This document shows, in pieces, positions 3,374 to 64,000 of a DNA stretch of 64,000 nt. The position numbers and the translations under genes are program-made. Below the pieces are notes generated by a model. The model saw only the letters and a program-made list of their open reading frames with translations, was not told the DNA's origin and ran no database searches. The DNA comes from Vermamoeba vermiformis (taxonomy: Eukaryota). The stretch spans positions 248,001-312,000 of the forward strand of contig JBEWZL010000084.1 of assembly GCA_045837725.1 (NCBI GenBank). Reading direction: 5' to 3'. How positions within the stretch are numbered: the stretch's first letter is position 1; the number at the start of each line of letters is the position of its first letter.

Positions 3374-6300
3374 ATGGCTACAGCAACTACCCCTCGAGGA
3401 GAACCGACTGTGGAGGATGTTCTGAAAGACATGGCCTTCGATCCGAAAGGCAGTATCGCTGTTTACTTCAAACATCAAGAAAAAGCCAAATACATGTGCA
3501 TTGATCAATTCGGTAAGTACGAGTTGCTTAATACGCAGTTCTAGTGTCCCGAAAATATTTTAAAAGAAAATAATCGATTTCCCCGACAAATTACAGATGC
3601 GTTAATTTTAATAATTCAATTGAATTAAAATATCTTGGGAGTACCTTCAAAAATTTTATTTCTACTTATTGGCCCTAGGGACATCATTATTCTTAATGTA
3701 TTTTCCTAACGATCTACCTTTGTTGCTATTGTGTTAATCTAACAAATTTAACGGAAAACTAATTCTACTGCATGCTAATATGAAACATTAAGGCAAAATG
3801 ACTATGCGACAAATTCCTAAAGAGTGGGAGAAGTTTACAGTGACCCGCCAAGCCGAGACTCATAAATTCTCTATCAAGGTATGAAACTCGTTACAAACCC
3901 ACGCAAAAAAATTGTTACTATTTGATTATTGATTTTTAATACGTTAATTTTCGGTATTATTTGTCAAATTAGCGACATTTTGGTGGACCGAATTAAAACT
4001 GATCCGTTATTTCGTATTTCTGCGGTTGATTGAATTTCAATAACACGTGCAAACTAATAATTATGCAATATTAACGGTTACTATGAATTACAGAGTCACT
4101 GGAATACCTTTTTGGGCTTAGACATTAAAGATCCGAGCAAACTCGATTTGAAGCCTCAATTAATCTATGAAGCTCAATTATGGACCTTTGAATTGGGCAA
4201 AGATGCTCTTTGGCGCATTAAGAACTGGTATGATTTTATTTCAGCTAATTATTAAATAGCGAATCAACTGCCGATTCCGCGGAAGATCCTACCGACAAAA
4301 ATTGCAATATTTTAAATTGAATTTTAATCAAAAATGCACCGTGCGTCGGCATTAAATATTATAAACGACCGCTGATAAAAATTAATTGATCTTTGTAATC
4401 GAATAATTACAATTTTTTATTACGGTACCTGCAGTTGCTAATTGATTATTATTATATAGCATGAGTGGCAGTTATTTGTGCTACAGAGGCAACAGAGAAT
4501 ACGTCATGTCGGGCGAAGTAAACACAGCACTTCAATGGCGGGTACTCGATATTGCCGCTGTTAATGACGTCACTTCCGACAATATTTTCAGCTTGGTATG
4601 TCTTATAGAATCATTTAAACCTAACGATTATAATGTCACCGGGATCTATTGTTCTAATTATAGAGATCTTCCTATTCTATAAATTTGCAAAGTATAATAG
4701 CTAATCGAAACTTCATCCTTTAGCTCATTTCGGAATTGACCCGCAAAGCTTTTGTTACATTGAATTCGGGTATCATGCACGAGGCCGAGCAATTCCTCGA
4801 CCAGGAGATCAAAGAAAACGAAAGTAAGTCATCACGATTGCTAAGCAATACAGATCCGGCCTAACCTATGACGTTTCAGACAATTGGTTCGCTTGGAAGT
4901 ACAAGGGTTATTTGCGCTTGGGCGCCAAAGATTGGGACAAGGCAATTGAAGCGTTAAGTCAAGCCCTGAGAATTGAAGAGAAGTACGTATTTTTTTTAGC
5001 TTACACGTGTCATTTGCATGTAAAACACGAGCTAACCTTATTGTTTTCAGATGGAGTTTTGCCTGGGCTAAGCTCGGCTACGCGTTCATTAAGCAAAAGA
5101 GATACTACGAGGCTTTGCCGTGCTATGCCAAGGCACTCGAGTACACTCCAGGTGATGTGGCTTCGTTGTACTACAAGGGCAAGGCGCACTTCCACACTCA
5201 AGACTACAACGAGGCTCGCGCTTGTTTCGATAAGGTCCTCGAGCAGCCTCAGAACTTCAAGAACTCGTTCTACTACAAGGGCAAAATGCTCGTGACGGAA
5301 CAAAAGATCTCGATGGCCATTCAATGCTTCAACAAAGCACTCGAGCGCAACCCCAACAAAGTCACCGTACACAACGAGAAGGGTAAGTATTAATATGAAG
5401 ATGTTATTACTGAGACCTATATGGCCTCTGAACCCTGTTGTGTTGCTTGCTCAATCCGTTTTCTATTGTTGAGCGAGTGTCAAACACGGGGAATATTCTT
5501 CGACACTATCAACTTTAACTTGATTTAATCTTGTACGAGGTTATTAACAGTGTGTAGGTTTGGCTCAAATGAAGCTTGGAAGCATCGAGGACGCTTTGGA
5601 TTGCTTTACCAATGCGTTGATTTTGCACCCGAAGGTTCGTTTTTCAGAGGTTAGATCCGCTCTTTGAGCAATTATTTATGCCTTGCTATAGGACACTGCT
5701 ATTTGGAACAACAAAGGTGCTGCATTCCGTGACTTGCGCAAGTACAAGAACGCCATGGAATGCTTCAAGACTGCTATTAAGATCGACGCCAACTGCTTGA
5801 ACTCGTGGGTCAACCTTGGTCTGACGTACGGCACTATCGGCAAGTACGAGAAGGCCATTCAATGCTTGCAAAAGGCACTTGAGATTGCTCCTCAACACGA
5901 AGACGCCCCGAAGTGGACTAAAGAAGTCAAATTGTACTCGGATATTATGGGCAATCACGAGGTGAGTATACTTTTCCTAATTAGGCAAATGCACTTATAA
6001 CCCAATTCTAACGTTTATTTTCATCGTAGGTTTTGGAGCTGCAAAAGAAAGGAGATGATTTCTATTTGCAAAGACAATTTGATAAGGCACTTGAGGTCTA
6101 TTGCAAGGCCAAAGAGACTACCAAGATGGATTCGCAAGATCTGGACATTAAAATTCACGGTAAGCTACAATATCTAACACCAAACATATCCTTATTAATA
6201 ATGCATTATAGAATGTAAATATGCTTTGAAGCAAGTCACGTGGGACATGTTGGATATCTTCCATCAAAATTCAGATCAGACTTACGAGCGGTTGTTAAAG

Positions 6301-8189: not shown

Positions 8190-10416
8190 CTAGCTAGATA
8201 CTCTAGAATCTGAACTTTGGGTGAACAAGTCGTGGCCAATTGAAAGGAAATCTTTGTTGGATGCAGATGAGGTCGGATCCTCCGCGGCATTTTGGTTTGA
8301 TGTGCAGTTGACGGCGAGAGAGACCTCTGCTATAGAAGGGGATCCAACTGAAGGCTCATTCGGCGGCGAGTTTGGCTGCAGATCTGGTGGCAGAGGGCGC
8401 TTGAAAAAATTGGCTAAAAAAGGCAGTAACGGCTGGTCGTTAAGAAGTTGATTATATTGATGCCAGAATAGTCGAGCAAGGAAGTAGTAAGAGTTAGAGA
8501 ACATATGAGCTATCTATACGTAATTTTAAAATTAGAACAAAGGATCAGATCCGAACAAAAAAAACGTACGTTTTGGAGCATTTCAACTTGCTTCGTTAGC
8601 TTCAAGAACGGTAAGATTGAGAAGACGTATATATAGGGGAATATGAAGTGCGGCATCTGAGCTATTAATGTTTTGGCAACGTTGATAATGTAGTGGCAAC
8701 ATTGGATCGCACTTTCGAGCTGATCGCAGGCGTTAAAAGCGAACACTCCGGCCACTTGAATAGACAAGCCAATAATATCCCTAATTAATAACATGAGAAT
8801 ATGAATCGGGTATTGGTTTAAAGGGTACTTGCCTTAACGTGTTTTCGGTTATTAATGAGGCTTGTTGGATCAGATCCGATAAGTATTTGTGAACCTCTGT
8901 TTGGTTAAGCTTAGTTCCGTCGCGCATACATGATGCTCCCACAGAGACTACCTACAGAGGTAACAAGTAATTAGCGTCCGAGATTTTCGAGATACAAAAA
9001 TTTTCAGTAACTTTCCTAATTTGGAAAGTTTGCTACAAAAATAGCACTCTGATACTACGCCACTTACCGCTCTAGCTTTATCTCTAAGATCTTGCGCGAG
9101 CTTTGATGAGCTTGTTGTGCCAAAATTGAACTCAGAAATCTTCGGAAATTGTGGATCTGATCGGCGGTCTTTAACTCTAGTAGAAGGGATGCTGAATGTT
9201 AATATATGAAGTAGATGGTCCTCAGTCGAGTCTCCGTCAATCTCTTCTTGGTCTTGTTTAGCTTTGTTCACAGGTAAGGCGGAAACTTTTCCGAGATCCG
9301 TTCTCGTCGCTCGAAGGCCGCTCAATCGCTTCCAAACACTAGCACTTTGTTTCCAATCGCCTATACTAAGTGCATAGAATGCTAGATTAAATAACAAGCT
9401 CATTTCTTCGTTGAACAACAACTCGTCTCCGAGTTCGTATTGTGTTGCGAACTCCCTATTTGTACGTAAAGAATAATACTTAGTATGCATATGATTTTAA
9501 GAACGAAACATAATTTGCACTTACGATGCCTCTTTCATGCATTTTTGGGCTGTTTGAATGTCGTTATTGATTAGCGCTCCGCACCCGATGACTGACATCA
9601 TAAGGGCATTCTTCAGCAGATCTAGGTGACAGAACAAATTTAGTGGAGGCTATAGCATTATACTTATATTAAATGAAATAAAGACATTATTTTGAGCTAT
9701 TTCTTAGCATTTGAGGTATTACGTACCATCATCTTGGAGCAGCGTATCGAGATCGGGATATGGAACGACAGCGCCTGTCATGGCACCTATCGTTTGGGAA
9801 TACCAATAGACATATGTTGAAAGATGAGGAATCGAGAAGAATTTTGCGATCTTATTGCGCACAAAGGCAATTTTCTAGCCAGATGAATTAGGTGCGGAGT
9901 AATTATCATATTTGAAGCGTTACTAATTCCGTTAATTTCCTTTAATTAACAGATAATTGCACGAGTATTAATCGGAAGTACTTACCGCTTGAATTCGATC
10001 CAGTTCTCGCATTTTTTGTTGCTGATCTGCCTTAAGACTAGTTTCGTATTGTTCGTTACACATTATTTTTATCTTCAACGTTTCATTTTGCTTAGTCATT
10101 TGTTCTAAGAAATAATAATAATAAGTTAATACTTCAATAAAGCGAGTTTTTGATGCATCCACCGCACCGAACACGTCTTCTTCTGCCATATTTGGAAACA
10201 CGCAAGTTTCATTAGCCTCGAGACATCGATCGCACGGACAAACGCCATTGCCTAGAATTAATATAGTATTAGCGGAACTATCCCTGATCGATGCGTGCTT
10301 ATTTAAGGTCCCGCTGACATGCCACACTTACATTTTTTATGATGAATTTTGCATCGTTCGCAAGCACGAAGTACGACAGAAATCCCTCCGCGTTTTTTAC
10401 TTACGCGTTTTTGCAT
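8190..10416 (-). CDS. Zn(II)2Cys6 binuclear-cluster transcription factor, multi-exon (3' end uncertain)
   Basis: Removing the intron at about 10252-10331 gives CERC-KIHHKK-C-NGVCP-CDRC-LEANET-C (Cx2Cx6Cx5Cx2Cx6C) after a basic N-terminus. A coiled coil and a middle-homology-like region follow. Confidence 0.85.
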
Positions 10417-11481
10417 TTCACTTGTGTTTTCTACTTTTTTAGAGTTTAGTAAAAATAATCTTTGTGTTTGTGGCCAACAAACTTCATTTTTTCTATCTAT
10501 AGAAGGTGATCGAGATGTTATCTTATCCAAATATGGTAATAACGACCGGCAGAAAATTAAATTTCCCAATGTATAATTAAAGTAGGAAATTTTGTAGTTA
10601 AAAACATCGTCAACCTGCGGCTATGTCAAACTGGTTCTAATAGACTTAATAGTACTATTTATAGCACTATTAAGACCAGTTACAATCGTTCGCTTGGGTT
10701 TGAAGGTATTTTAAGTTACGCGGATAATTTCCCTGCCACGCGCCTCAAACGTTTTAAACCTCTTTCTGTGAACGTAAAACTGAAATGAAAGCGAGAGATA
10801 CAACGAATAAGTGATATTTAAGGGTCTATATGCTATATGCTTCATATTGATCGCTTTTTAGTACCTCTTTGAAAAAGTGGTGCCATGTGTTCATCGGCCG
10901 ATAGACACGTGCACAAATTTAATGTTCAAAATACCATTCTAAAGGGTTATAGATAGGTATAGTCGCTCAATTATTATAGAAAATAGGCGAATCGATGTTT
11001 GAAGTTGCAGAAATGCAATTCGTTTCGAAAGTAAATTTGGCAACCAGATCTATTTTTGGAATTAAAAGACTTCGCTACCTGAGAATAGGCGGGCAATAAA
11101 GGACGCTTCTAGGGCAATAATATCGCTCAATTTACTTCGGAGAGCACAAATTTCTAAAAAAAGGCATCATTAAGTAAGCGCTATTTTAGGAGCTGGGTTT
11201 AGCTATTTTGGGCGACTTACCTGGTTTCATGGGAGATAGTAATCCTGAAAGTAATCCATTTCGTTTTGCCTAGCATCGCATTAATATTTCAGATTTTTAT
11301 GAGATATCTCCTGCGAACCAGATCTATTGTACGGGAAGCGCCAAAAAGTTCTAATAGTAGATCCGTTGTTAGTAATGGTGGCAATGTTTTATTATGTTAA
11401 CCGTACTTACTATTGCATCCATAGGCATCGCCTAAAGTAGCAGATCTGGGCGTATTTGTGGTTTAATAATCCACGCTGGAT

Positions 11482-12919
11482 CTAACTCGACTTATTCTCG
11501 ATAACGAGGTTAGCAACAATAGGGCAATGGTCACTTGCGGGTCTATCGCGTTCGCCGTTCTCGAGCACTTTGTAATCCTGCACGGTAATTCCTTTGCTCA
11601 CAAGAATGTAGTCAATCAGCATCGTATAAGCGTAGTTAAGTAGCTTAATATAGATATTGTTGAAACCAACAAATGTGGCTTGGGTGCTATTAGCGCCGGT
11701 ATTGACTAATGATAGGCCTAGATGTCGGATCAATTAGGCATCATTAATGACCCGTAAAGTGAGCTCAACATACCCCACTTCATCGCACAATTTGGGTTCG
11801 TGACTTCAGCTATTAGACCTTCGTGTGGCGTAGAATTAAAATCACCGGTTAAGATGCACGGGAGACCATTGGATATGGCTCGCATTTTTGATAATATCAA
11901 GTGCAAGCCGTTCTTGCGTGCCTCGAATGATTCGTAGTCCAGATGCGTGTTGAACACGAAGAATGGAGGTGCATTTCTATTGAATAGTCAGTATTTGTTA
12001 ATCATATCATATGAATTACTTACTTAGTTTTAGATCTGAGTTTGACCCACGAGCAGATCCTCGGCAAAGGAGCTTTCCAGGCACGAGATCCAGCAGTGTA
12101 CGGCGTCTCTGATAACCAAAACACGCCACACCCTTCTTGCTATATTAAACTAACGTTAAATATAATCATATCAAGGTATCGATAACTTACACTGAACAGA
12201 TCTGCTCGATAAAATATCGGCGAAGCTTCACCGCGTTGTTGACCGTCATCGCGGCCCCACGAAACATAATCAAATGCAGAGCCCACCCTTTGCTTAACAT
12301 ACTAAAGGCTTGCGTAAGTTTGAATTTCATTACGGTGATTAGCACTTACCGCTAGCTGATGGTGCAAGGGCTCTTGAAGGCCAAAAATGTCGCATCCTTT
12401 AACAATTTCTGAAACCTGCCTCAAAAATTATTAAATATTATAATTTTATAATGCTATGCATACTATGTCTTTTCGATGCTCCCAAGAATGTTTTCCGTCC
12501 TCTGGAGTGTCATAACGAATATTAAAACTCATGACCTACACAAAAATTCAATTTGATTATTAAAAATAAATAAATTAATTTACCTTCACCGCCAATGATT
12601 CTGGATAATTATACGTTTCTTTTCTACGATCAAATGCTTCAATAATATTCATGTCGCCATTATTTTCCAAAATTCTATTGTCTTCACTTTCCCAATGTAG
12701 GCTTCCTGATTGATCCTTAATGACAAACTTATATTCGATTCTTGTTGCTGGCAATTTAAATGCTTGAGCGGTTTCCCACCAATTCAACTGAGACCACTTC
12801 AGCTTGTTATCATTTGTGGGCATCCAGTTACCAAGTGCTGGAGTATTGCCGACTACGTGTACTGTTTGGCCGTAGCTTGTCTCGCAGTACACTCGAAAAA
12901 GCACATTTGTGGTCGTCAT
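11482..12919 (-). CDS. CBM20 starch-binding domain fused to an exonuclease/endonuclease/phosphatase (EEP) domain
   Basis: N-terminal CBM20 (TSYGQTVHVVGNTPALGNW...IEYKF...WE...NR). Spliced EEP motifs VMSFNIRYD, DIFGLQE, GRDDG, FWLSETP, PRICSW, NTHLD, LTGDFN, IDYI, SDHCP. Confidence 0.88.
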
Positions 12920-13054
12920 GGTAAATTCGAACAAAAATATGTTTTATGCAGATACTTGCCATTTTTGGAAGTGTATCGGCTCTAGAAGCTCGGGAAGGTT
13001 GAATACTTTATTAAACATATTTAATACAAGTTGTCGCTTATTAAAAGAGCGTCT

Positions 13055-14319
13055 TTACATGTCGCACGGGTACAGTAGGACGCAGTTCCACCACGAGGTA
13101 GATCGCGGTCGTCGTTGTTCTGAACCTGATTTAAACATTAGATAGCTGTCTAATGATTCGGCGACGATATATTGTTAGTAACGCCGACGAGTATATTAGT
13201 ATATAGAGTTCAAATGTGACTTCTTACCTTCGGTCTCTGAATGATTTGTAGCTGGTTTAGGTGTGGGCATAGGAGCTAATTTCAACGGCTTAGCCTTCTC
13301 TTCTATCTCTCGCTGCTTGTGCTCGATAGGAAAATTCTTTTCGATCAGGTTGGCTAATACTAAAGAGAAAGTAACAATTAGAAACAGAGGGAAAGGAGAT
13401 CCGTTCCCAAAAGACTTGCTGCAACTGAATTATTCGTGTGAACTCTCAGTCAATTTCGCGAGTCATATTTAATACGTACCTATATTTATAGAATGGTTGA
13501 ATTCAGAGGGGTGGTCGAATAACTTGGCTCTGCATAACGGACAGTTCTTGCTGTATTGAAGCGACGAGATCAGGCAGTTTTTGCAATAAGTATGGCCTAT
13601 ATCCATAACGTTAGTAATATTATCCATATTTCCGCGTTAAATTTCTCAAAGAAATCGATAGAGCAAGATCGCGCAAGACCGAAACTGAATCTTACCACAG
13701 ACGGTTGTAATGGGCTGATAAAATAGTCTGAAACATAAGGAGCATTCAAAATCCGTCATGTCTAAGGGGTTTACGAAAGAGCAACTGCAAGGAACCTCGC
13801 CGTGCTGAGAAAATTTGAGGTCCTCGAATAATTCTGCATCCGAATCTGCTAAAGCGGAGCCATCTTCGGAGTCACTTGACCTACATAATTAATAAATCGT
13901 TAGCAATGTAGATTAAATGGCCAGAGGGTTAAATTTTCTGCGTTAAAAGTTCGCTGCAAAGCACCCGAATCTCATCCTAAAAATATTTGATACGCTAGAT
14001 TTTCTACGGCAACGATTCGTAAATTTGAGTGTTTTAAATTACAATTTATCAGGGTGTACCTTTTAATGATTCTGGAATGCGGCGATTGGGAAATTGACCG
14101 AATCGCGTTCGATGCGCTTTCTTGAGAAGCGAAAGCCATAGTCGTAGCCAAGTGATTGGAGGGCGAAGATGATAACGGAGATGAGGATTCAGCGTCAGAG
14201 GCATTACTATCAATTAATTCGGCGCTTGAATCAATTGGATGCGGCTCTACTTCGTCCAGTAACAAGGAAATGTTGTTAATGTTTCTGCCGCGCATGCGCG
14301 ATCGAATATTTGTTGCCAT
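13055..14319 (-). CDS. RING-HC finger protein (LONRF-like RING), putative E3 ligase
   Basis: Spliced CSLCFRLFYQPITTVCGHTYCKNCLISSLQYSKNCPLCR. Ser-rich N-terminus. The last exon is inferred from the acceptor near 13126. Confidence 0.8.
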
Positions 14320-14839
14320 GATTGATGAGGTGAATATAAACAATGCAATAGAATATTATACAAGTATTTACAGGCTTTTTACAGGAGATTCGAAGGGTTA
14401 CCAAATCTGCACCCCCTTCTACCACTTCAAAACTATAATAGCTGGGTGTCTTGTGGTTGGTAATCTAAATTGATTTTGTTTTAAGATGAAAGGCACGCGC
14501 GAAGACAAAATAAAGCAGTTTGACCGCCAATTTTCAGCCAAATCCACAGGAAACTAATTCCGGCTCGATTTTCAGCCACACGTCACTTGACCTTGCCTAC
14601 GCAATTATCCTTTTCAAGTAACAATCTTTTTGCGCCTTAAACAAACTGCCTACTTATATTGTGTCGATCCAAGCCCTGATAAGTCGGTTGAATGATCGCA
14701 TGCATTGCAATGCAACAACGAGAACTTTAAAGCAATTTAATTTGCGGAATAAGGCTAAGTTAATGTACAAAAAGTCTCGATGCGAAATTTAAACCAACAC
14801 GAATCGGATGTGGTCTTCAAAAAATAAATAATTGGTTTC

Positions 14840-17778
14840 TTATTCAATGACTTCGACGTAATTGCTAGGGAAGTTGCCACCAGCGCCCGATGAGTTAGTT
14901 CCATAGTACCATCCATCCTCTTCGCCTTGAATCTCCAAGATTTCGCCTGAACAGCAGATTAGCAAAAAAAGATCCGATCGAGCTTTTTTTGAATTCTCTT
15001 ACCTTCTTTAATGGTCAATTCGGTCTCATCTTCGGCATCGTAGTCATATAACACCTTGCAGCGCATTGTTTGACCCTCTTTAGGCACGACAACAGTGCTT
15101 CTGTTACCAGGTTCGCTTGCAGCTAAATAAAAAACAGATCCGGTTAATATTGATCGTAACGGATAAGTATTATACTGACAATAGTTGCTACCTTCTCCTC
15201 CGATAACCTCGACAAAGTTCGACGGGAAGACACCTTCATTGCCATCCACGTTTCGTCCTCGCCACCAGCCGCTCTCGTCTTTTTCAAGCAGCACGAGAAT
15301 ATCGCCCTCGCGCATTGACAATTCATTTGCTTCGGTGGCGTCGTAGTCGTAGAGAGCGCGCAGACGAGTCTGGCCGTCATCGTCTGAACAAAATAGGAAT
15401 TAAATTTAATTTCAAATTCAAATTAAGCCAAATTATAATTGTAATAGCATTCGCTAGTAAATATATAGAACAGCCAAGCAGCCAGTTTCTAATGGCGCTA
15501 GGAGTGCCATAGATCCGACCGAGATCTCTCGATCTCGCCGCTGATCCGAGCTGAAGGAAAATAACTTACTGCTGCTAGCAACAGATCCAGCGGATTGATG
15601 AGTAGGAGCAGGGATATAAGGCGTATGCGTGGGCTGAGCAGAGACCGGTCGTGAGTTCGAGTTGTTGGTCTCAGGAGGAGGTGTGGCAGGTGTGCTGTTG
15701 AAAGTGAGTGTCGGTGCTCTGTTGGCCGAGGTCTCGTTCTTCACTGAATTCATCGGCGCTGACACCGTCACTGGTGTGCTACTGTCCTTGGAGCTGCCCT
15801 TGCTCGCTAAAATAATCACCAATCAGTCGTTAAGCTCAAGGTTAAAACCTTCGTGTCAAAGTGTCCACGTACCTTTGGGCTCTTTAGGTGGTTTGTCCTT
15901 GCTGGCCTTGTCTTTCTTCTTCAAGAAGCTCAATGCGCCGCTAGACTTGCTGCCTGAAGTGGTAGGAGTAGGGGCTGAAGTCGAAGGGGCGGACACAGCT
16001 GAAGTGGGCGGTTGTTTCTTGTCCGCGGCACCGAGCGGCACGTAGAAATATTGTGATTGGTCCTAAGCCCAACAAATAAATAAGTTATGAAACTTTTGAG
16101 ATGAGACGAAACAAAACTTACAACGGTGGAATCGTAAGCGGCGTATTGGACGCGTGGTGGAGGATAACCACTGGGCTTGTTGACTGTAACAAAGGCACGC
16201 AAATCATTGGAAACATCGACTGCGTTGGCTTTGGTCTACAAAAGAACAAAACGAAGGTTAGTGACACGTGTAAACGGTCGTCGATTAGGCATTATTTGTT
16301 CGTACGTTAACTCTTCTGACGGCTTCGGAGACAGAGGGACCAATGTTCTCAGCAAAGTTGACGAGCTTGCAGAACACGTCCTTGGTTTGTGTCAGACGCG
16401 AGTTCTCGTGCGATTCCATTTGCTAGTCATCAGTTCGGTTAGTTTAGATTATTTAAAATAATTCATTGTAATAAGACGTACTTTCAAAATTGCGGGCATT
16501 TCGTTATCGTAAAATCGGTCTTGAATGGCCTTCAAATTGTTCACAGAGTGAGAATAGTCCGTGTCTGATTTGTCTGCTTTTTTAGTGGTCTCTTCGAGCT
16601 TCTTTTGCACCTGTACAAATATCGTTAGTATATTTGCATATGGTGCGTATACCAGTTAATAAACGAGATTGCACGAGATTTTAAAGCGGATCTAACGGAA
16701 AAAGTGTCTTACTTTAGGAACTGAGGACGAGTTGGCTTGTTGTGCCTTTTGTAATTCTTCTTTTGTTTTGTCTTCCATTTGTCGCATTTTAATGTAATCT
16801 TTTCGTTCCTAAACGATAAAATAATATTTTTAGCTCATAATTATTTCGGACAAGATCTGTAGGCTTAGAAATTCGTTTAATTCGCTTATTTACCTTCATC
16901 ATTTCATCTTGTGCGTGCAACAAATCCTTTGTTAATTTTCTTCCGTTGGCAATGGTCTACGAAGAAAAAAATTAGAACGGGAATTCAATTTGATCGAAAA
17001 AACAGTAAATTTCTGTATTTATCTCGATAATGTTGTGATAATAAATAAGACCTACCAATGCGCGGCCTTTTCGGTCTTCCGTAGTTTGTTTTGAGAAAGG
17101 GTCATGAACTTCAGCCAGTACTTTTTGAGCGAATTGAGCATGAGTATTTGCGATAGCTTCAAATTCGTTTTTAACGGTCGCCCAGCATTCATTAGTGGTT
17201 CTATATAATATATTAAATTAATAAATTATTCTTGGATCTTAAACTGCACAGATGAGGTCGTAAACAGATTTTGGCAGACGATCTGCATTAAAATTGTAAA
17301 GATACTTTTCGTTGAAAAATAATTCTGTAATAATGCAGAAATAATAGGAAATAAATTAATTGATATAAAGCATGAACCATTTGAGTTCAGATGGGACAAA
17401 CGGGAGGTGAAGTCGTTGGTATAATAGAAATAATTTCTTTCGATATTAAAATAATTATGTCATATATAAATAACACTATATTTACCCTGATTCTCCGTTT
17501 AAGTCTAGATTTCGAACTAATTTTAACAGCGAAGAAGAGTATGCCTCTTCAATCTCGTGCAGCTTCTTTAAAAATTTGGCGACTTCTTTTGAGAATTTTT
17601 CTCCATCTTCCGCCTTTTTAGCGACGACTTCAAAGCCGTTCTAGAATTTACAACGGGATTAGTCGTTGCGTTTTGAATCAAAACTCTAACAACCGGTTTA
17701 CGTGCAGTATAGCCGCTCAAACTATTAGTGATGAATATTATTATAATATGTACGTACCCACAACTCGTCGAAACTCAT
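14840..17778 (-). CDS. F-BAR (FCH) domain protein with Pro/Ser linker and two C-terminal SH3 domains
   Basis: MSFDELW|NGFEVV FCH start followed by coiled-coil exons. SH3 motifs ALYDYDA...MSMREGDIL...GWWRG...GVFPSNFV and VLYDYDAEDETELTIKEGE...GWYYG...GNFPSNYV. Confidence 0.9.
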
Positions 17779-18236
17779 TTCGTTCGGAGCTGAGCTGTGT
17801 TGTCTCGGTGGTGGAAATTTTAATTTTACGAGTCTTCAAGCCTGTCAAACACCTTGTGGCGATTGGCTCAGTTCAAAATAGGGTGTCAATTAATAGGAAT
17901 ATCAGCTACGTAACTGCGGTGAGGCGTACATGGAGATAGTGCGGTAAAAATTGTTACGGAGGCATAAATCCACACATCCGGAGATTGCTCCTGATTTATT
18001 GCCCATTTAATCGATTTGAATTTAATTCTTACATACTTTAATACCTATTGTACCGTGCGGACATTTGCCAGTGAAGTTTCTGTTTCAAAAAATCTTTCCG
18101 TTTCAATTGGCCGGAAACGTGGCCACAAATTATTTGCACAATATCTGCGGAGTAATAACACTACGTATATATAACGTATTGGTCATTAATACGTTGTTGA
18201 CGTCACGTACAGTTCAGCTTCAGTGATCCGATCAAG

Positions 18237-21200
18237 ATGTCCTCGGTCTCTGATAGCGATCTCGACCATTTATTTACTTTTTTTGGTAGTCTGTCTGATT
18301 ATAGTGCCGCAAAAAAGAAAAAAGATCCTGAAGTACGTAATAGATACTATGAAATGTCAAATCCATTTCAATTTTGCGACAATATCTACCTAGCGAAATT
18401 TTTACGATATAAATCGATAACAGTATAATAAATAATATGAAATAATAGTATTTCTGTTTTTTCCGAATATTAGAATTTTTAAACGGTCTATTCAAAGTTG
18501 TGAAAATTGAATAAGCGTAGAATATTTTGTCTACTATTGGCACAATAATTTATATTAATATCTACTTAATGTTATTAACTGCTATGTATTCCAGCTGCAA
18601 GAAATACAAGACAGATGCAACGCACTTTTTTCAAAGGACTACATTATTCATCTGATTGAAAATAATCATTGCCATACGTACCCTCCCGAGATAGTATTCT
18701 TAGGCAGTCATGATGCTAGGGTAATATTAGATTTTTTTTGAATTTTTAAACGAACTTTCTGGTCTCAATGTTGCAATTTCGTTTCTAGGGGACCGAAGGA
18801 GATCCGTTCAACGCAATTCTCAGCCATGAAGAAACAGGTACTTATTTTCCCTATCTATCATATTTCCTCCTGCGGCAAGAAGTGGATCCGGATTTTTAAA
18901 GTTAAATATTTCCTATTTTGGGTTTGTTGCTTTAACATTATTATGCAGCTGTGAAAATGGAAGGAGAAATGCAAAAAAGCAAGAATTGTCGCTGCCGCCA
19001 ACGATTTCCAGGTACGTTTCTTATCCTACCGAAAACTAATATCAGATAACATCTGTGAATCGAATTTAATATTTAATTAATGAGAATTGTTGCATATTCG
19101 TAAATTATGTGTAATAATTGTGTTTTACGGCATTAATTAATGTTGTGGAACAGTTCCCGTGATAATGATCAACAACAAATATGTTTGCCGATCTGCTGGT
19201 CTGTCGGAAGCATTGGAGATCACCTTTAGGGTCAAAAGCGAGAATATAGGGTACTATAATATTACAATACTCTAACGTCCGATAAAATATAATATAATAT
19301 TTGTTGCGGATGTGGCACGTGCTTACAAACTTTTTCGTAGACATTCAGCTTCATCGGTAGCAACTCATCGAGAGTGGGATATATCATGGCTTAAGATGCT
19401 TAATATCAAATACATTTGCGATCTTATGGTCGAAGAGGCTGTTAAAGTGTACGTCATTGAGATTATTTTTTTTTCATGAACCAGATCTGCTTGGCGGGAT
19501 CTAGCAGCAAGCATGAAAATCTTATTAATTATCGTCATTATAGTTTGGGTTTTAGCGTTTGTTCTTCTGAGCGTACAGCTGAAGGCCACGGCAAAGTTTT
19601 TTACGTGTCTGGCATGCCCTATCCTGGTACGCATGAAACTGAAACACAACAAAATTTCTAACTATAATAACATCATATAGGTGTCAGTGCCTATGCCAAC
19701 TTCATAGAGAAGTTACAACGATGTAAGTCTAAGCGTTGCTATAAATAGAACATGATCTGACATATGACAGCTAAAACTGGTCCGTTGAAGATTACGACGG
19801 ATTATTGGAAAAAAGAACAAGCGACTGTTAGTATTTGCAAGCCTTTTACTCTTCCAAAGCCGTATAGCTGGGACCAATTCAAGCAATGGAGTGCTAGTAC
19901 GTGAGACTTAAAATTATTATTATTCATTCGATATTTTTTACCTAACATTTGTGTAGTCGAATTGACGCAAAACTACATGCGCTTCATTTTAAACTTGCTT
20001 CGCGACCCTGACAATACAGCTGGTGTGTTGATTCATTGTATTTCTGGTAAGATTATCTCGTGAAAATCACCTCGGTCGAGTCACTCATTCAATGTATTTA
20101 GGCTGGGACAGAACACCATTGTATATTTCACTACTCCGTATTCTTTTGTGGGCCGACGGTCAGATTCACAAGAACTTGTCAGCCGATCAAATGCTTTATT
20201 TGACGATTGCCTATGATTGGTTACTTTTCGGGTACGACAAAATTTTTTTAGACGCTTCTCGGAATTCAATTTTCTAATTAATATTGCTAGGCACGGCTTG
20301 TCCAAGCGCCTTAACAAGGGCTATCAGATCATGTACTTCTGCTTTTGGATCCTTGATTACCTCCGTGACGACGAGTTCAGTTTCCAATTCAACAAGCACG
20401 ACAAAGTGAACGAAGAGTTCCCTGAGACTATTGAGTACACCTTAGACCGACCTCCCTTGCCCAAGATCAGCAAGAACTATGTCAGCCCGACACTAGACAC
20501 GCACGACATGTTGTTCAAGAAGTACAACGACCCTAGCCTGCTTAAGAAGGCCAATAGCACGGCTGTGTTGAAGTCGCCGAAATCAAAAGACACCAATAGT
20601 GCTCTGACGCGTAACACGACTATTGCTCCGTTCACAAAGGACGAGTCAGTGCGTAACTCCAAGAGTGCCCCATCATCGCCGAGAGAACCTGAGACACCAA
20701 AGTTGGACGCACCAGCTCCGCCGACAGATACACGGGCCTCAAAAAGTTCCAGCAGTGACACGCACTTGGACTCCATTTTAACATCGAGCGAGACATCACA
20801 AATCAGTGAGTTGCAAATCAGAGTTGAAGAGCCAGCTGGTGAAGGGCAAAACAGTCTGTTCAGCAGCGATCTTTCCGACCCAACGAATGAACCGACTGGC
20901 GGAATTATTATTGACACGAGTCATAAAGGCGCTGAGAAGGAATGGGAACAAATCAAAAACAATCAAGACATTACTGACACTCAATCGCAAGTCTCGGAGA
21001 TAACTGGTCCAATTATAGACGACCGTGAAACCGTCACAATGGAACAATGGGAGAAAATGCAGCAAGGAAAGACTAATGGAAACAATACGAATGTCGACAC
21101 CCTATCAGAAGGACCTGTCATTGACGACCGTGAGACTGTTACGATGTCAGAATGGGCTAAAATGCATGAAGCGAAAGACACTTCCACCATTGACACACGT

Positions 21201-22379
21201 TCAGCGATCTCAAGCGATGACGGCAAGAGCCTAACTGTCCCTAATGAAGAGCCGCTACGCACTTCGTTGAACAGCGATCATGCTGCTGTTAACGCCGCCA
21301 GCAACAAGGCCCTGGATGCAATTAACCAGCTCAGCATGGACGACTTTGAGCACATTGAAAACAAGTCAGAGAAGGGCGATCACGTGGTCGATGAGCGCGA
21401 GACGGTGACCATGGAAGAATGGGAAAAGTTGCAGCAAGAAAAGAACAACGCGGATAATGCAGCAGCACAACAAACTAGGAAGAACTCGATTCCCATCAAC
21501 ATCCCTGACAATCTCAGCGACATCAGCTCACCGTTCAGTGACGTTAGTCTCGAGTTCGCGAAGAGCACGACGCCCAAAGCCAATCCGCTCATTGAAAGCT
21601 TGAAACTATCGAACAACTCACCGCGCCTGAGTGAGCAATTAGCTCATCTTGATGACCCGATTTCAAGGAACAGTCTCGCTGATAGTCCACGAAGCAACAA
21701 CAACGACTATTTGCCACGCGACACGAGTTACAAGCGCAAAGATAGCTTAGCCGAGTGGTTGGAATACACGCCTAGCCCTCCTGAGACTATTACAGTAAAA
21801 GTTGAGACTAAGCCTGAACCCGTAGTCCAAGTACCAGTAACGTAAGTGACCGATGCGCACGTGACACGTGTCACTAACTTCAATTCTATTTTTAGCCCTA
21901 CGAAGCCTACTATGGTGCCTAATCATCAAAGTGTAGTCGTAGATGAACGAGGTGATGATAAGTGGCTGGGTTGGGACATTGAAATTGACAGCGAGACGAG
22001 CAGCATGTCGGATCACATTGAAAAACTTGACATTAGTCCGAACGAATTTAATGGAGCCAATCATATTCCTGTGACGTTTTTCATGCACTTTAAGAAGACT
22101 GCGCCTACTGAAAGTCCAAGAAAGAGCAATACCAATGATATCTCCATGAGCGCAAGATCTTCCGATGAAAACGTTGATCCGGAAAAAGAACAAAAAAGAC
22201 GAGAATTGCAAGAGCGATTTGATCGTAAAATGGAGCGCACGCAAAGAATAGAACAAATTAGAGCTAAATTTATGATGTTCTATTTCAAGTGCATTCATAC
22301 AAAGTACTCGTTAGAAAAACGAAATCCGATCCGTTCATCATTTTTGGCTCTTATCAAGAACAATAGCAACCAAATGTAA
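18237..22379 (+). CDS. MTMR14: Myotubularin-related protein 14 (phosphoinositide 3-phosphatase) with a long disordered insert
   Basis: Spliced motifs RCRQRF-PVPVI, YICDLMVE, MPYPG, catalytic HCISGWDRTPL and AYDWLLFGH. A 54-nt intron at 21842-21895 joins ORFs 20217..21845 and 21846..22379. C-terminal RIEQIRAKF. Confidence 0.9.
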
Positions 22380-22444
22380 ATAAAGCCTTCCACTTGTAAT
22401 TAATTAGTGCTATTCTCAAATACTCCGGATTTGTTTCTGACATT

Positions 22445-24422
22445 TTATTTTGCGTTTTTACGAGCACTTATTTCGTTAAGGAACTTGAGACATTGGTTGT
22501 CGTTAAAACACTGTACATTCAGATGTTGTGGGCAACCATTGGCATACAAATATTTAAAACAACTCAGGGCGTTTGCTTCAGCTGTCCACTTATAAGTTGT
22601 TTTATCCCATCGACATCCATTCTCATGCAGGTACTTCAGCATTTGCAAGTAATTGTTCTTCCCTGCATAGTACGTTTCTTTGTGAGTCCAAGGACAGCCA
22701 TTTTCATGCAAATACTTCAAGCATGCAAATCTAGCATTTTTTGCAGCTTCTAACATTGTGTTTGCAGTCCATGGCACACCATACTTGTGAGCTAACATTA
22801 GGCATTGAATATTGCCTTCTGAAGCAGCTGCTGTGCAAACAACAGAGCTGGGCCTGCATCCATTCTTGAGCAAATACTCAAGGATATTTATGTGCCCCAA
22901 TTGTGCAGCCACCATGCACAGGTCATCTTCCAATTTGCAGCCAAGCTTGTGAAGGGCTTGAAATATTTCAAAAGCTCCTGATTCTGCAGCTGTCTTCATA
23001 GCACTTTGATCATAAGTGCCTGTGTAGTGTTAGTAATTTGAGAATCAATTAAAAAAAACTTACATCCAAGACTGATTAGATACTGGAAAGTTTCTGGGTC
23101 ATTGTTTGCTGCAGCCAGATTGCACAATGAAACGTCACTGGTGTCAAGTTTGTACCCTTTGCTTATGATGTACTTTAATCCTTGCAAGTTTCCATTTTCT
23201 ATGACTTTGTGGGCAATAGTCATTCTAGAGTCATTTTCATCCTCATCATAATAGTATCTTGCTAGTGGTGTAAATGTGCCTTCCCAGTTGAATCCATTTT
23301 CATGCAAGTACTTGAGCATCTCTACATTGTGACTAGCATTCATGCAAGCATCGTTTGTTGTAGGCTTGGGACAACCAACTTCAAGCAAGTACTTTATCAT
23401 ATGCAGATGATCAGACACAGCTGCTAATGCATATTCTGTTCCACTCCAGTGGCATCCATGCTCTCGTAAGATTCTACTCAGGTTGTTAATTTCTTCACAG
23501 GCTCATGGTTGGACTTACTTGACACATTCAATGCTGCCAGATGTCACTGCATTATTAATTGAGTTCTTCCAGTAAATCTGAATGTCTGCACCATTTTCCA
23601 GAGCATACTTGAGGCACTCTACACTTCCAGATTCAGCTGCTTTTGCTATTGTCTCATGCCATGCAGCACCCTTTTCATGAGCAAACTTCAAACAGTCCAG
23701 GTGACCTCCAAGTGCAGCTGTTATACAAGAGTCGCCTAGTTCACATCCTGCATCCACTAAATACTTCAAATTTTCCAATCTGCCTGCCCTGGCAGCCTCT
23801 TTACAGAGCCAATGTCGTACCATATGGTTGGATTTACTTTCAAAAATGTACTTCAAGCAATCTATCCCATCCGCTGCAGCTGCACCTACAGCTGTTTCCA
23901 TGTGCCAGTCACAGCCATTCTCATGCAAATACTTCAACGCTGCCAATTGATTGTTCTCCGCTGCTTTTGTTGTAGCCCAGAAGTTACATGGAAATCCATT
24001 TTCGCGCATGTATTTCAAGCAATCTACATGGCCTGGTCCTGCTGCTTCAGGGCAAGCATCGTAGTCTAAAGGGCATCCGTTGTCGTGCAAAAATTTGATG
24101 GTGTCAAGTTGACCTTCAGAAGCAGCTGCTGCCATTGTGTCAGCATCCCATTGTATTCCAATATCGTAGCAGTATTGCAGGCATGATATTGCGCCAATTT
24201 TTGCAAAGTAATCCATTGCAGAAGAATCGGCATCTGACACTGTTTTGAACTTCGGATCGGCCAGCTTGAGAAGCCGCTTATTTGTTGCTCGGAGCATCAT
24301 AGCATCATAGACATGAACGTCGCTTAGTATGTGTGTCCAAACGTCGTTGGGTAAGTCCAGTAGAGTGGTCTAGTGTCAAATCCAGAAAAATGTTAGAACG
24401 TTACAAATTATTCCATTACCAT
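22445..24422 (-). CDS. F-box-like N-terminus plus degenerate ankyrin repeats of the type abundant in amoebal giant viruses
   Basis: ATG-only exon at 24420-24422, then TLLDLPNDVWTHIL. Many AAxxGxLxxLKYLHENGCxW repeats. Two short internal introns (about 23021-23063 and 23473-23518) join three ORFs. Confidence 0.85.
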
Positions 24423-48642: not shown

Positions 48643-48664
48643 TGTTGCCTGTGTTGTCTGTGAA

Positions 48665-55000: not shown

Positions 55001-56607
55001 GGAAGAGAAGTTGGCGAGCAGCAGCCAAGAAGCAGCGCACTCTCAGTGACAATTTCACAATTGGTGACAGCCAACGAGTACAAAGTTCGCGCCTTTTGTG
55101 GCAACAGCGAGCTTGAATCAAGTGTCTTCGCATTTGAGGCAGCACGAGTCTCGTCTCTCACGCCTGAAGGTGTTGCAGGAATAGTAGTTGGTGCATTTGT
55201 GTTGCTCGTTGGAGCTATTGTGACGGGCATACTTGTTCAACGACGTCTCAAGAGGAGCAAGCAACACGAGATCGAGTTAGAGAACTTGCTCAATGAAGCC
55301 AAATCCGAGAACTACAAGCCCAAAGACGGAGTTTCGATCATTCATACAACGACTTGGGAGTGGTCCCCTAGCGATGGGTACACGTACCGACCAATCGACA
55401 ACTTCCCGTGCGACATTGACACGTCACTGTTGAAGTATTCGTTGAAGCACGCAGTTGATATTGACGTGTGGATTCAAGGCGACATCGTTTTTTCACCGAA
55501 AGAGAAGAGCAGTGCAAAAGGCAAGCAAGAAAGACTTTTGAACGGGCTTCAAATTGACGTGTACGTGCCACAATCTCCCAAGTACGAGATCAAAGTAGAG
55601 CCTGCAAATTTCACCCTTCAAAGCAACAAACAAGTGCGAGTAACAGTGTCATCGATGATGCGAATGACAGCGAAGAGCAACGTCTGTTTGATCGTCGTTT
55701 GTGAACGGCAAATGATTTATTCGGTCCTCGAGTTCAAGATTGAAAGCAAGCCGTCAATGTGGATCGATATTGAAGAGATCAAAATGACAGGAGATTTCCT
55801 TGGTGGAGGAGGGTATGTCAAAAGTGACACGTGTCAAATCCGTATTAACTTTTTTCCGGTAGATTTGGAGCTGTAACGAGAGGTGTTTATCGAGGACAAG
55901 ACGTAGCTGTCAAAAAGCTACTATTGCAACACATGCTTGATGATGTCTTGCACGAATTCGAACATGAAATAACACTAATGAAGAGCTTGCATCATCCGAA
56001 CATCGTACAATTTGTTGGTGCTTCAAGCGTTCATGAAAACTTGGCCATCATTATCGAGTACGCACCTCTTGGCAGTCTCGCCAGCGTCATGAAAAAGCAA
56101 AAATTGTCGTTCTCGATGAAAACTACAGCGTTATTTGAGACTGCCAAGGCACTCCAGTTCTTGCACGCGAACGGAATAATTCATCGTGACATCAAGCCTC
56201 AAAACATTCTCGTCTTTTCACTCGAACAAAGAACGCCGGTGCACGTTAAACTGACTGATTTTGGCACCGCAAGGTTCATCACAGAGAACGCGACAAATGT
56301 CACAAAGAACGTCGGAACATTTGCGTACATGGCGCCAGAATCGCTCGGAAAGAACCCACGCATTGATAAGAGCGCAGATGTATACAGTTTTGCTATATTA
56401 ATGTGGGAAGTGCTTTACGAACAGCTTCCGTTCGAGGAATTTCAGTGGCAATCAGATCTCGAAAAACACGTGCTTGAAGGAAAGCGACTGCAGTTGGATC
56501 CGCTACCGAACGACCAGCTAGTGAGGCTTATAGAAGAATGTTGGCATCCAGACCCATCACAAAGGCCTTCTATGACTGCTGTAGCTCAGCGACTTGCAGA
56601 TCTGTAA
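52067..56607 (+). CDS. Receptor TKL kinase: Kelch-like propeller, Ig-like domains, TM and kinase; 5' end apparently disrupted
   Basis: Kelch motif YSGG...SSVEVFDPQTN. Ig-like segments (QNAGTYVIQI, LCAIASNPAG). TM GVAGIVVGAFVLLVGAIVTGILV. Kinase LGGGG|FGAV, VAVKKL, HRDIKPQN, DFG and YMAPE. Intron 55813-55862. Confidence 0.85.
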
Positions 56608-60900: not shown

Positions 60901-60996
60901 AATAGGCAACTGTTTGTATAGAAATATTGTAGTCAATTATAATAAAAGTCAGCATAAATAACAGCTTACGTTAAAGTTCGAAAGTCACATCCACAA

Positions 60997-61938: not shown

Positions 61939-64000
61939 ATGTGGCGTTCTCTGACGAACATAGCCAAAGTAGTTGCTAAACCGAGTAAAAATGCCAAGAT
62001 TTTCAATAATAAGACGCTCTTTAGGCAGAACTCCACGCAGTAAGTCAGATCTTTAAAACTACAAACACAAGAAATTATTTAAAATCTTATAAAATTGTAA
62101 AATAACCTGCGCATATCGGAATACCGATTAAAATATCCCTTTTTAATTTCTCGTAATAACTCTAACTCATAGGGCCGCTCCAAAGAAGAGATCCCTTGCC
62201 AAAGTTTTTGGCTACACCTTAGGCGGTCTTACAGTAGCCACCGGAGCAGGATTATTAGCAGGATCTTTATATGCAGATATGAGCGTGCCTTTATTCACCA
62301 AACACACGGTCAGATTTCTTCGTACCGCTTATGTGGTAAGAGATCGCGCTACGAAAAATTAATTGCTAGCTTTTTTTCAAATTAGATTCGTGATAATTAA
62401 TTACTTTCATCGTTTTATTATAGGGCGCATTGATTTCTTGGGATTACAAGTGGTCTCTTCGAGATATCGAAAGAAAAGATCCGCGGTACATGCCAATCGT
62501 TAATGAAGTAAGATTTTGCCTTTTTTAGCAATTAGTCTTTAATATGAAACATTTATAACCCTATATTTTACTGTTGCAGTTCGAATTTGATATCGATAAG
62601 AAAAGTTAGATCTAACTTTTTTGACAGGTCAATCTAAGAACAGCCAAACGACTGCTGGACTTATGTTATGCAAATAGAGGCATTTATGTTAAAGCTGGAC
62701 AACATTTAGCGTCGTTAAATCAAGTATTGCCGAAAGAATTTACCGACACTATGGCGGTGTTGCAAGACAAGGTAACACTATTAGAATTACCTCATAAGAA
62801 AATGCCATAATTCAATTAAATATAATACTAATTTTCTCGTTAGGCGCAATATCAGCCGTTATCAGCAGTCGAAGAAGTTTTTCGTGAAGATTTTAATCGA
62901 TTGCCAAACGAAATGTAAGTTCAAAATAGTCGAAACGGAAATACTTCCTAATTTAGTAATTGCTTACTATTTTATTAGATTTGCAACGTTTGATCCGGTT
63001 CCGATCGCTGCAGCTTCGCTCGCGCAAGTTCACGTAGCGACTTTAGCTGACGGAAGAAAATGCGCCGTAAAAGTTCAATATCCCGACATATGGCACATGT
63101 TTAGAGGCGACATTAAGACTATAGAGTTCATGGTCAATACTATCGCCTACTTATTCCCCGACTTTCAGTTCTCGTGGATCGTACCTGAGTTCAAAGAATT
63201 TTTGACCGAAGAGTTGGATTTTATTAATGAAGGCAAAAACGCTGAAAAAATTCAAAGTTTTTTCCCGAATAACAAGCAAATTCAGATTCCTAAGATTTAT
63301 TGGGTAAGTATGACGGATCCTTCACTTTTTGCCTTATTAGGCAAGACTACCCGAATCAATCACGTGACGGGCATTCACTGAAATTCGATGTCGCATCGCT
63401 GCAGGTCAATATTTCCTTTTTTGGTTACTATCCGCGAAAATAACTCTATTTTATCATTCATCATAGATTAACATTTCCTTTAATAGAACTACAGTACTAA
63501 ACGAGTCTTAACGATGGAGTTCTGTGAAGGAGTTAAAATCAACGATGTGCAGGGCATTGAGAACATGAAGCTGGACAAGGCTGAAGTCGCTAAACTTTTG
63601 ATCGATTTGTTCAGTGAACAGATTTTCGTGCATGGATTTGTACATAGGCAAGTTTAATCAACCATATTATTTAATTCTCTATTATCGAAAGATCGGTTTT
63701 AAGTACGTTTGTTTGCTCTGGATCCGTCGATGACAAAATGACACGTGTCAATTTTTCTTTACACAAGTCATAGTTTTTAACGTATTTTTGCAATTATAGT
63801 GACCCTCATCCCGGAAATATTCTCGTGGCTCCGTTAGATCCAAACTGGCGAACAAGTAACAAAAAGAACTTGAAGCCTAAGATTATGTTACTCGATCACG
63901 GCCTCTACAAAACGTAAGCGCAAATGACGCCTATTAATAGTATTAATATTAATATTCATATTTAGCCTGCCTAATGAATTGCGTGTTGATTACTGCGAAT
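61939..64000 (+). CDS. ABC1/UbiB atypical kinase (ADCK1/ADCK5-like), 3'-truncated by window
   Basis: Basic N-terminus resembling a mitochondrial presequence. GIYVKAGQH, LQDKA, PIAAASLAQVH, AVKVQYP, ELDFINEG, VLTMEF, HSDPHPGN and LLDHGLY. GC-AG intron at 63648-63799. Confidence 0.92.

Follow-up and report, generated by a model that had tools for sequence, protein, structure and literature searches.

A perfect 12-bp palindrome recurs in introns of unrelated genes in a 64-kb stretch of Vermamoeba vermiformis DNA and may be a site for a dimeric protein

In budding yeast, the introns activated by Mer1 constitute a regulon defined by an intronic splicing enhancer, a non-palindromic sequence located near the donor. 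Among DNA sites, the available part of a study of Arabidopsis drought genes gives GACACGTGTC as an enriched promoter motif of the G-box/ABRE-like kind (PMC4417316), and the crystal structure of the TGIF1 homeodomain, as the accessible portion of its report describes it, places two monomers on opposite faces of a 16-bp palindrome (PMC6158717). Introners are recognized, in the section of the source at hand, by the similarity of introns together with their flanks in an all-against-all BLAST (E of 1e-5 or lower), and by the start of this similarity no further than 5 exonic or 10 intronic bases from each intron boundary (PMC9860276).

The window, that is, the whole 64-kb stretch of DNA analysed here, holds four exact and three one-mismatch matches to the 12-mer palindrome TGACACGTGTCA. 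These seven matches compare with 0.20 expected, and none of 100 dinucleotide shuffles gave as many. In a first-order Markov simulation of 200 runs, the classes with 0, 1, 2 and 3 mismatches, observed 4, 3, 1 and 18 times, had means of 0.005, 0.075, 1.9 and 20.7, respectively; the two- and three-mismatch classes are at the background level, the copies are all-or-none, and the sole two-mismatch site (1.9 expected) is exonic. The recurrence of the 12-mer is too frequent and too exact for chance. The seventh match (20912-20923), which carries a central mismatch and lies within a 542-codon open frame, is exonic and looks like a chance occurrence; the other six are described in Table 1.

Table 1. 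Intronic copies of the 12-bp palindrome and their host introns (window positions)
Copy	Position	Host intron	Host gene
Variant TTACACGTGTCA, mismatch at position 2	5001-5012	68 nt, 4983-5050	TPR+PI3_PI4_kinase, + strand
Variant, TTACACGTGTCA on the transcribed (minus) strand	16262-16273	70 nt, 16236-16305	FCH+SH3 (F-BAR)
Exact (21862-21873), as 14-bp palindrome GTGACACGTGTCAC	21861-21874	54 nt, 21842-21895	
Exact, centre of a ~50-nt imperfect palindrome (28063-28112)	28080-28091	145 nt (predicted), 28038-28182	DEX1-domain gene
Exact	55825-55836	50 nt, 55813-55862	Kelch+Pkinase
Exact, inside a 26-nt 85% palindrome (63732-63757)	63739-63750	152 nt, GC-AG, 63648-63799	ABC1/ADCK

An earlier sequence-only reading of the window had listed four exact copies, three of which are where it placed them, whereas the one given as 21872-21883 was off by 10. 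Its 14-bp extension of that copy was correct, as were its two one-mismatch copies, to which the exonic match adds a third; its statements that exons are free of exact copies and that such a 12-mer is expected far less than once per 64 kb are borne out by the intronic location of all four and by the Markov expectation of 0.005. The upstream half-sites that it saw beside exact copies are present. The six host genes are unrelated, and the domain matches agree with its names PI3K, F-BAR, DEX1, kinase and ADCK; MTMR14, its name for the sixth, finds no counterpart, that gene having no Pfam hit. The GC-AG intron that it proposed in the ADCK gene is sustained by the ABC1 profile, whose positions 138-190 and 192-215 fall on the two flanking exons, and this intron replaced a GT-AG model (63703-63799). 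The folding, introner BLAST, flank-similarity and GGATCT analyses used that shorter intron, which includes the motif, and the same outcome is expected with the longer one.

Exons make up 58.3% of the window, introns 25.5% and intergenic DNA 16.2%, according to our own gene models, which recovered seven of eight RNA-supported introns, those eight being part of the training set. In these models the six copies that contain the inner ACACGTGT fall in six different introns, as the claim of an intron-only location had it, and none is intergenic; the chance of such a distribution is 2.7e-4 by intron share and 0.052 when coding sequence is excluded a priori. The motif-bearing introns are six of the 120 in the window. 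Splicing was directly observed for at least two of them, in a comparison with RNA reads and contigs that covered a 20-kb stretch with three of the host introns and that used RNA runs chosen by the same species label: intron 16236-16305 is removed in four reads of X17, seven reads of X18 and two contigs of X7, and intron 21842-21895 in record 12 of X7, where the pieces 21540-21841 and 21896-22403 are contiguous. The motif occupies the intron interior, starting 13-43 nt from the donor (92 nt in the GC-AG intron) and leaving 10-91 nt to the acceptor when two environmental introns are included. A general intronic enrichment of CACGTG was rejected, six of the 20 sites other than the six motif copies being intronic for an intron share of about 25%, and so was decay by CpG methylation: intronic CpG is not depleted (observed/expected 1.36), and the central CG of the motif is therefore at no special mutational risk. 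Neither Rfam nor tRNA scanning gave a hit in the window. A second intronic motif in the window, GGATCT, is sense-biased (21 vs 7).

The motif is also found in short introns of environmental contigs from similar low-GC eukaryotes, namely the near-identical pair L001 and L009, which differ at three of about 1,440 aligned bases, and L012. Cluster members at 90% or more protein identity lie on JGI contigs of 589 and 542 kb.

In their 25-nt flanks, the six copies resemble one another no more than random intron positions do (share of controls reaching the observed mean: 0.24). With the core all-or-none and its flanks at background similarity, it is therefore the 12-mer itself that is constrained, and the copies are not simply recent duplicates that carried their surroundings along; the best explanation of the sequence pattern is that TGACACGTGTCA is a functionally constrained recognition element with double-strand symmetry. 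When the spacing k in TGACA-Nk-TGTCA was varied from 0 to 12, enrichment was confined to k=2, with four copies, all intronic; the other spacings gave 0-1. Additional TGACA or TGTCA half-sites occur within 25 nt of the copies (4 vs 0.6 expected, P 0.0115), often about 4 bp from the core and on either side of it relative to the transcript, as expected if the reader is strand-symmetric.

The model we tentatively favour is that the motif is a putative site, of the G-box/ABRE or TALE-homeodomain type, at which a homodimer would bind double-stranded DNA. The core lies well inside spliceosomal introns of an ordinary kind, which it would not have created, and a sequence-specific homodimer would read it at the DNA level: either a bZIP or bHLH factor recognizing a G-box/ABRE type of site (CACGTG, ACGTGTC), or a TALE homeodomain-like factor recognizing a pair of inverted TGACA half-sites with a 2-bp gap. 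Introns would host the site since they account for most non-coding DNA in this gene-dense genome, and the site would be removed from the mRNA. The binding might result in an enhancer-like control, or act within gene bodies on chromatin or elongation. This model fits best because the dyad is perfect, the core is all-or-none over unconserved flanks, the half-sites are enriched and the sequence agrees with published G-box/ABRE and TALE-homeodomain palindromes, and on these points the dimeric-protein site suggested by the sequence-only reading is partly supported; the absence of intergenic copies is only marginally significant with exons left aside (P 0.052). The same absence weighs against a DNA site, none of the six copies being in the intergenic 16% where promoter sites are expected, with P 0.052 given non-coding DNA; so does the placement in the gene models, where no host intron is the first of its gene and the copies keep no constant distance to any gene start. 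The lack of a two-mismatch excess is a steeper fall than transcription-factor sites usually show, and the common transcript orientation of both variants, together with a branch-point-like continuation shared by three copies, hints at a link with RNA or with splicing.

That hint belongs to an account we judge rather unlikely, in which the motif would mark a splicing regulon in RNA, being read by an RNA-binding factor or pairing with itself or another RNA and thereby controlling the removal or the retention of a subset of introns. The copies are confined to transcribed sequence that splicing later excises (6/6 in the window, plus L001/L009 and L012), both intronic variants read TTACACGTGTCA on the transcript, and base pairing would require the all-or-none exactness observed. 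Three copies share the continuation GTGTCAC, then T or G, then AAC: CTAAC, which is branch-point-like, directly follows the copies at 16262-16273 and 21861-21874 (a second CACGTG overlapping the latter at 21858), and CGAAC abuts a third. In L012, nothing branch-point-like other than the TTGAC of the motif lies at a usable distance, and 10 nt separate the end of the motif from the 3' splice site, but seven of the eight introns inspected by eye have an independent branch-point-like sequence downstream, and a role as a general branch point was rejected. As the sense bias of GGATCT shows, introns here do carry RNA-level signals other than their splice sites. However, a perfect palindrome is superfluous for a reader of single-stranded RNA, the half-sites flank the core on either side on the transcript, and the distances to the donor (13-92 nt) and to the acceptor (10-91 nt), the two environmental introns counted, are variable. 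Nor is a common hairpin predicted: folding stability is ordinary, with a mean z of -0.19 in the motif introns (n=6) against 0.47, sd 0.99, in other introns (n=76), and the minimum-energy structures differ among the six introns, which do not share an unusually stable one.

In a further account, which takes in the intron-targeting element of the sequence-only reading and which we regard as unlikely, the motif would be a very short dispersed palindromic repeat of the micro-foldback or MITE-like type, inserting into, or surviving only in, pre-existing introns; the core would be its still recognisable remnant, and any function would be secondary. Imperfect palindromes of 26-50 nt surround two of the six window copies, one at 28063-28112 with 15-nt arms (80%), where additional TGTCA/TGACA half-sites flank the core on both sides, and one at 63732-63757 with 13-nt arms; longer ones occur in L001 (310-349, 20-nt arms, 70%) and in the non-coding DNA of L010, where the core sits within a larger foldback with GACAC-repeat arms. 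Sub-variants also exist (TTACAC twice; a TGTCAAA flank, in either orientation, in two of the four exact copies), and the extended motif is intronic in other low-GC eukaryote contigs as well. Against such a repeat, the background flank similarity and a core without decay classes are the opposite of what a neutral repeat would give, neither target-site duplications nor terminal repeats at a defined boundary were seen, and the window contains no intergenic copies. No nuclear mobile unit as small as 12-21 bp is known to us.

That the motif is the core of an intron-generating transposon, or introner, which would have created the host introns, is very improbable. Some junctions recall such an origin: the upstream half-site TGTCA overlaps the donor GTATGT of intron 55813-55862 (GTATGTCA), a flanking half-site supplies the acceptor in L012 (TTTGACAG), and the palindrome arms of L001 start with GTAAAT and finish with ACTTAC. 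The organism is, in addition, found in water metagenomes, and introners are commoner in aquatic species according to the available part of the source (PMC9860276). Yet no pair of the 120 window introns reached E 1e-5, the only three pairs at this threshold all involving metagenome loci selected by the search pattern itself, and the host introns (50-152 nt) have unrelated ends. The alignment for extended similarity and target-site duplications that had been suggested at the outset gave, at best, 14-24 nt centred on the interior motif, never at the intron boundaries, and revealed no duplications; the intron-generating element envisaged by the sequence-only reading is not supported. The one intron comparable for recent gain, 16236-16305, is spliced at the same position in RNA reads only ~90-95% identical to the window, i.e. 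it is common to a lineage of that divergence. Finally, an origin of the copies in chance or in an assembly or adapter artefact has a negligible probability: no point in its support was found, four exact copies face a Markov expectation of 0.005 and no shuffle of 100 matched the observed count, spliced RNA contigs and reads jump precisely over two host introns, and the motif is also intronic in independent metagenome contigs.

Beyond the window, it is conceivable, if somewhat doubtful, that about one intron in 20 (6/120) carries an exact dyad element belonging to a lineage-wide, intron-resident system conserved across related freshwater eukaryotes, in which either a dedicated dimeric factor would read the element within gene bodies, or the element would spread as the smallest known nuclear palindromic repeat, kept exact by that factor. 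The dimeric factor might couple chromatin or transcription elongation to the splicing of a defined set of introns. Either form, if true, would be a gene-body element without a described counterpart, and the label "undescribed" given to it earlier fits a non-exhaustive literature search, in which the exact 12-mer appeared, in the accessible parts of the sources, only in unrelated primer or oligonucleotide contexts, and the 10-mer was reported in articles none of which concerns introns by its title or abstract. Apart from those of animals, plants and yeasts, little is known of intronic signals other than the splice sites. An exact, dyad-symmetric element of 12 bp confined to introns of unrelated genes offers a sharp, mutable handle for asking whether the introns of compact protist genomes harbour DNA regulatory sites, whether some of these introns are under joint control, or whether palindromes of very small size can invade introns. 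If the density of the window holds genome-wide, few intron motifs other than splice sites would be known to be commoner in any eukaryote.

Compared with the known systems, the motif resembles the Mer1 regulon in that a specific short sequence is restricted to introns of a few unrelated genes, and differs from it in being a perfect palindrome of variable position. With introners (PMC9860276) and with the symmetrical stwintrons of the Hypoxylaceae (PMC8469720), as the available parts of both sources portray them, it has in common a sequence shared by introns of unrelated genes, the presence of some copies within a longer symmetrical sequence and the aquatic setting; in contrast to both, the similarity covers 12-24 nt of the interior, not the whole intron, and is accompanied by no target-site duplication. 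TALE sites of the TGIF1/MEIS type, in the accessible portion of the structural report, share its inverted TGACA half-sites with a 2-bp spacer, often preceded by T, whereas the central dinucleotide is CG in the window motif and GC in the published site (PMC6158717); the likeness is one of sequence, and intron restriction is no known property of TALE sites. As for G-box/ABRE sites, those of plants are degenerate and located in promoters, whereas the window copies are intronic, 12 bp long and all-or-none, with none of the six in an upstream, intergenic location. The CACGTG or ACGTGT(C) core of these sites is nevertheless present, all six intronic copies containing ACACGTGT, and the inner ten bases, GACACGTGTC, are the very string of the Arabidopsis promoter motif as given in the available part of that study, palindromic and, like those sites, suited to be read by a dimer.

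The palindrome TGACACGTGTCA, a perfect 12-bp dyad formed by two inverted half-sites (TGACA and TGTCA) 2 bp apart, is a real and highly non-random feature of the window. Seven matches with at most one mismatch were found against 0.20 expected, and none of 100 dinucleotide shuffles reached seven. The window holds 4, 3, 1 and 18 sites with 0, 1, 2 and 3 mismatches against 0.005, 0.075, 1.9 and 20.7 in 200 runs of a first-order Markov simulation, so that the excess is limited to the exact and near-exact copies. The sequence-only reading had located three exact copies correctly and put the fourth at 21872 instead of 21862, and its list of one-mismatch copies lacked the one at 20912, an exonic copy in a long exon that is most likely due to chance. 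A further CACGTG overlaps the copy at 21862 (21858-21873, GCGCACGTGACACGTGTCAC), so that this 54-nt intron contains a pair of G-box cores spaced by 7 bp.

Copies of the 12-mer in the window and features of the matching metagenome loci
Feature	Motif start	Location	Length	Host or neighbouring gene	Remarks
Exact copy	21862	intron 21842-21895	54 nt	gene without Pfam matches	RNA-spliced
Exact copy	28080	intron 28038-28182	145 nt	DEX1 gene	predicted
Exact copy	55825	intron 55813-55862	50 nt	Kelch+Pkinase gene	predicted
Exact copy	63739	intron 63648-63799	152 nt	ABC1 gene	GC-AG, predicted
One-mismatch copy	5001	intron 4983-5050	68 nt	TPR+PI3_PI4_kinase gene	predicted
One-mismatch copy	16262	intron 16236-16305, minus	70 nt	FCH+SH3 gene	RNA-spliced
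One-mismatch copy	20912 (to 20923)	exon 20291-21841			central T to A
L001 = L009, one locus		intron	65 nt	adjoining TRAF-zinc-finger gene
L012		intron	61 nt	ABC transporter gene	motif end 10 nt ahead of acceptor
GC-rich array		L003 200-240		AMP-binding enzyme downstream
GC-rich array		L004 400-440
GC-rich array		L005 515-560
GC-rich array		L006 3520-3560		AMP-binding enzyme downstream
GC-rich array		L007 6305-6350
GC-rich array		L008 855-900
GC-rich array		L011 600-640		small LexA-like winged-helix protein downstream

The window is eukaryotic, gene-dense, of 40% GC and rich in short spliceosomal introns; it is present in full in DNA runs of one species label and in part in water and aquifer metagenomes. 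A small gene finder combining codon log-odds and splice-site matrices kept 20 models with 119 introns. It recovered seven of the eight RNA-seen introns with canonical joints, a weak validation since the same eight served for training, and further predicted introns outside the training set fall at or near RNA joints (13597-13695, 13881-14059, 16063-16121 and 16611-16712). After one correction, these models assign 58.3% of the window to exons, 25.5% to introns and 16.2% to intergenic DNA. RNA-seq reads of the same species label map mostly at 90-95% identity (for the run X17, 3, 101, 415 and 113 reads at 99% or more, 95-99%, 90-95% and below 90%), from which it follows that the transcriptome derives from a diverged relative. 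Across 8500-28499, the runs X17 and X18 carry many fixed differences to the window, with some segments replaced, and the species label seems to span diverged lineages.

Six copies of the inner 8-mer ACACGTGT are present in the window, and each is one of the intronic motif copies by our gene models. Splicing of 16236-16305 was seen directly in 4 reads of X17, 7 reads of X18 and 2 contigs of X7, and that of 21842-21895 in record 12 of X7; the remaining four host introns are based on gene models. The ABC1 profile is matched up to position 190 by the exon that ends at 63647 and from position 192 onwards by the one that begins at 63800, which bears out the GC-AG intron proposed earlier. The host genes are mutually unrelated, and the earlier observation that the palindrome recurs inside introns of unrelated genes holds for all six ACACGTGT copies. 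The name MTMR14 for the host of 21842-21895 is unconfirmed. By intron share, six of six intronic copies have a probability of 2.7e-4; with coding sequence excluded beforehand it is only 0.052, so that the intron-versus-intergenic contrast is only suggestive. A general intron enrichment of CACGTG was rejected, as 6 of the 20 remaining CACGTG are intronic once the six motif copies are removed. No CpG depletion was found in the introns of the window.

Other intron signals were also recorded. Among the 75 introns of 130 nt or less, the leading donor hexamers are GTAAGT (25/75) and GTACGT (15/75), and TTAAC, CTAAC and CTAAT prevail among the branch-point-like pentamers; GC-AG splicing is represented by at least one intron, with donor GCAAGT (63648). 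A second motif, GGATCT, occurs throughout the window, with 21 sense and 7 antisense copies in introns against 2.2 expected from intron composition (for example in introns 34383-34457, 37995-38041, 42795-42907 and 8514-8569). It often runs into the branch point as GGATCT(G/A)AC or takes the form GGATCTGATCC; being common in exons too, it is notable only for its intronic sense bias.

A metagenome collection was scanned for the core plus the flank found in two window copies, which yielded 12 loci. Five are eukaryote-like and of low GC, 34-40% (L001, L002, L009, L010 and L012); the motif of L002 is probably intronic as well, and since the search pattern fixed 21 bases and not location, the short-intron habit is shared by further contigs from organisms of a similar type. 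In L010 (865-985, on a contig of 34% GC), AT-rich non-coding DNA contains a larger foldback with GACAC-type repeats as its arms, one of which includes the 12-mer; no other observation hints so clearly that the core may be part of a longer palindromic element. The seven GC-rich loci (56-66.5% GC) bear half-site arrays upstream of uninterrupted open frames, in which TGTCA and TGACA alternate and include the same 12-mer, a match partly forced by the search pattern. These loci look bacterial and their arrays look like operator arrays for a dimeric regulator, a separate matter from the intronic motif.

The model we propose rests on the anatomy of the motif. When TGACA-Nk-TGTCA pairs are counted at every spacing k between 0 and 12, k=2 alone stands out (4 copies against 0-1 at other spacings). 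Extra half-sites number 4 at up to 25 nt from the core, where 0.6 would be expected (P 0.0115), and lie on either side of it, whatever the transcript direction. Similarity of the 25-nt flanks is not above that of random intron positions, 0.24 of the controls reaching the observed mean. The decisive pattern is that of an exact 12-mer amid unconserved flanks, with decay classes absent: a neutral repeat would be expected to have cores in decay, and flanks in common if it were recent, and neither is seen, so that the core is under constraint. It would be a recognition palindrome housed in introns and read by a putative homodimeric DNA-binding protein. Perfect dyad, preferred spacing and half-sites independent of transcript direction together give the pattern of such a protein's site, an assignment that we make tentatively and rate somewhat short of an even chance. 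The site for a dimeric protein put forward by the sequence-only reading thus gains from the dyad, the spacing, the half-sites on both sides and the match to published site types, its placement in introns rather than intergenic DNA being only suggestive (0.052).

Action of the motif at the RNA level would be the most natural account of its intron-only location, and it fits the common orientation of both variant copies, which read TTACACGTGTCA on the transcribed strand, and the contacts with branch-point-like sequence: the copies at 16262, 21862 and 28080 are each followed by C(T/G)AAC, which in two of them is CTAAC. However, it leaves the palindrome unexplained, and folding of the host introns revealed neither a common structure nor unusual stability; we consider it rather unlikely. 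In the six window copies, the distance from the donor to the start of the motif varies from 13 to 92 nt and that from its end to the acceptor from 22 to 91 nt, so that its position in the intron is not fixed. A micro-repeat landing or surviving in introns would fit the sub-variants and the longer imperfect palindromes around the core (28063-28112 and 63732-63757), but not the conservation pattern, and is likewise rather unlikely.

An intron-generating mobile element, also suggested earlier, is not supported, since the operational test for introners set out in part of PMC9860276 (all-against-all BLAST of introns with 20 nt of flank, E 1e-5, similarity to both boundaries) gave 0 pairs among 120 window introns, the motif-intron alignments are interior and of 14-24 nt, no target-site duplication is visible at these introns, and intron 16236-16305 is common to the window and the diverged transcriptome lineage. 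Published introners, in the portions of the literature considered, are whole-intron families. Some transposon flavour is kept by the flanking half-site that overlaps the donor in 55813-55862, by the one that provides the acceptor in L012, and by the palindrome arms of L001, which open on a donor-like hexamer and close on the complement of that hexamer.

In conclusion, the motif is most likely a putative protein-recognition palindrome housed in introns. In open-access text, the 12-mer appears only in two papers, both unrelated, and the inner 10-mer GACACGTGTC in 23, of which none concerns introns by title or abstract; no account of an exact palindrome restricted to introns in this way was found, in keeping with the earlier word "undescribed". 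Known sites do resemble it. The palindrome of TALE homeodomain proteins, bound by two TGIF1 monomers in the relevant part of PMC6158717, likewise has inverted TGACA half-sites with a 2-bp spacer, although its central dinucleotide differs from ours; and GACACGTGTC coincides with the G-box/ABRE motif of Arabidopsis promoters, as given in a section of PMC4417316.
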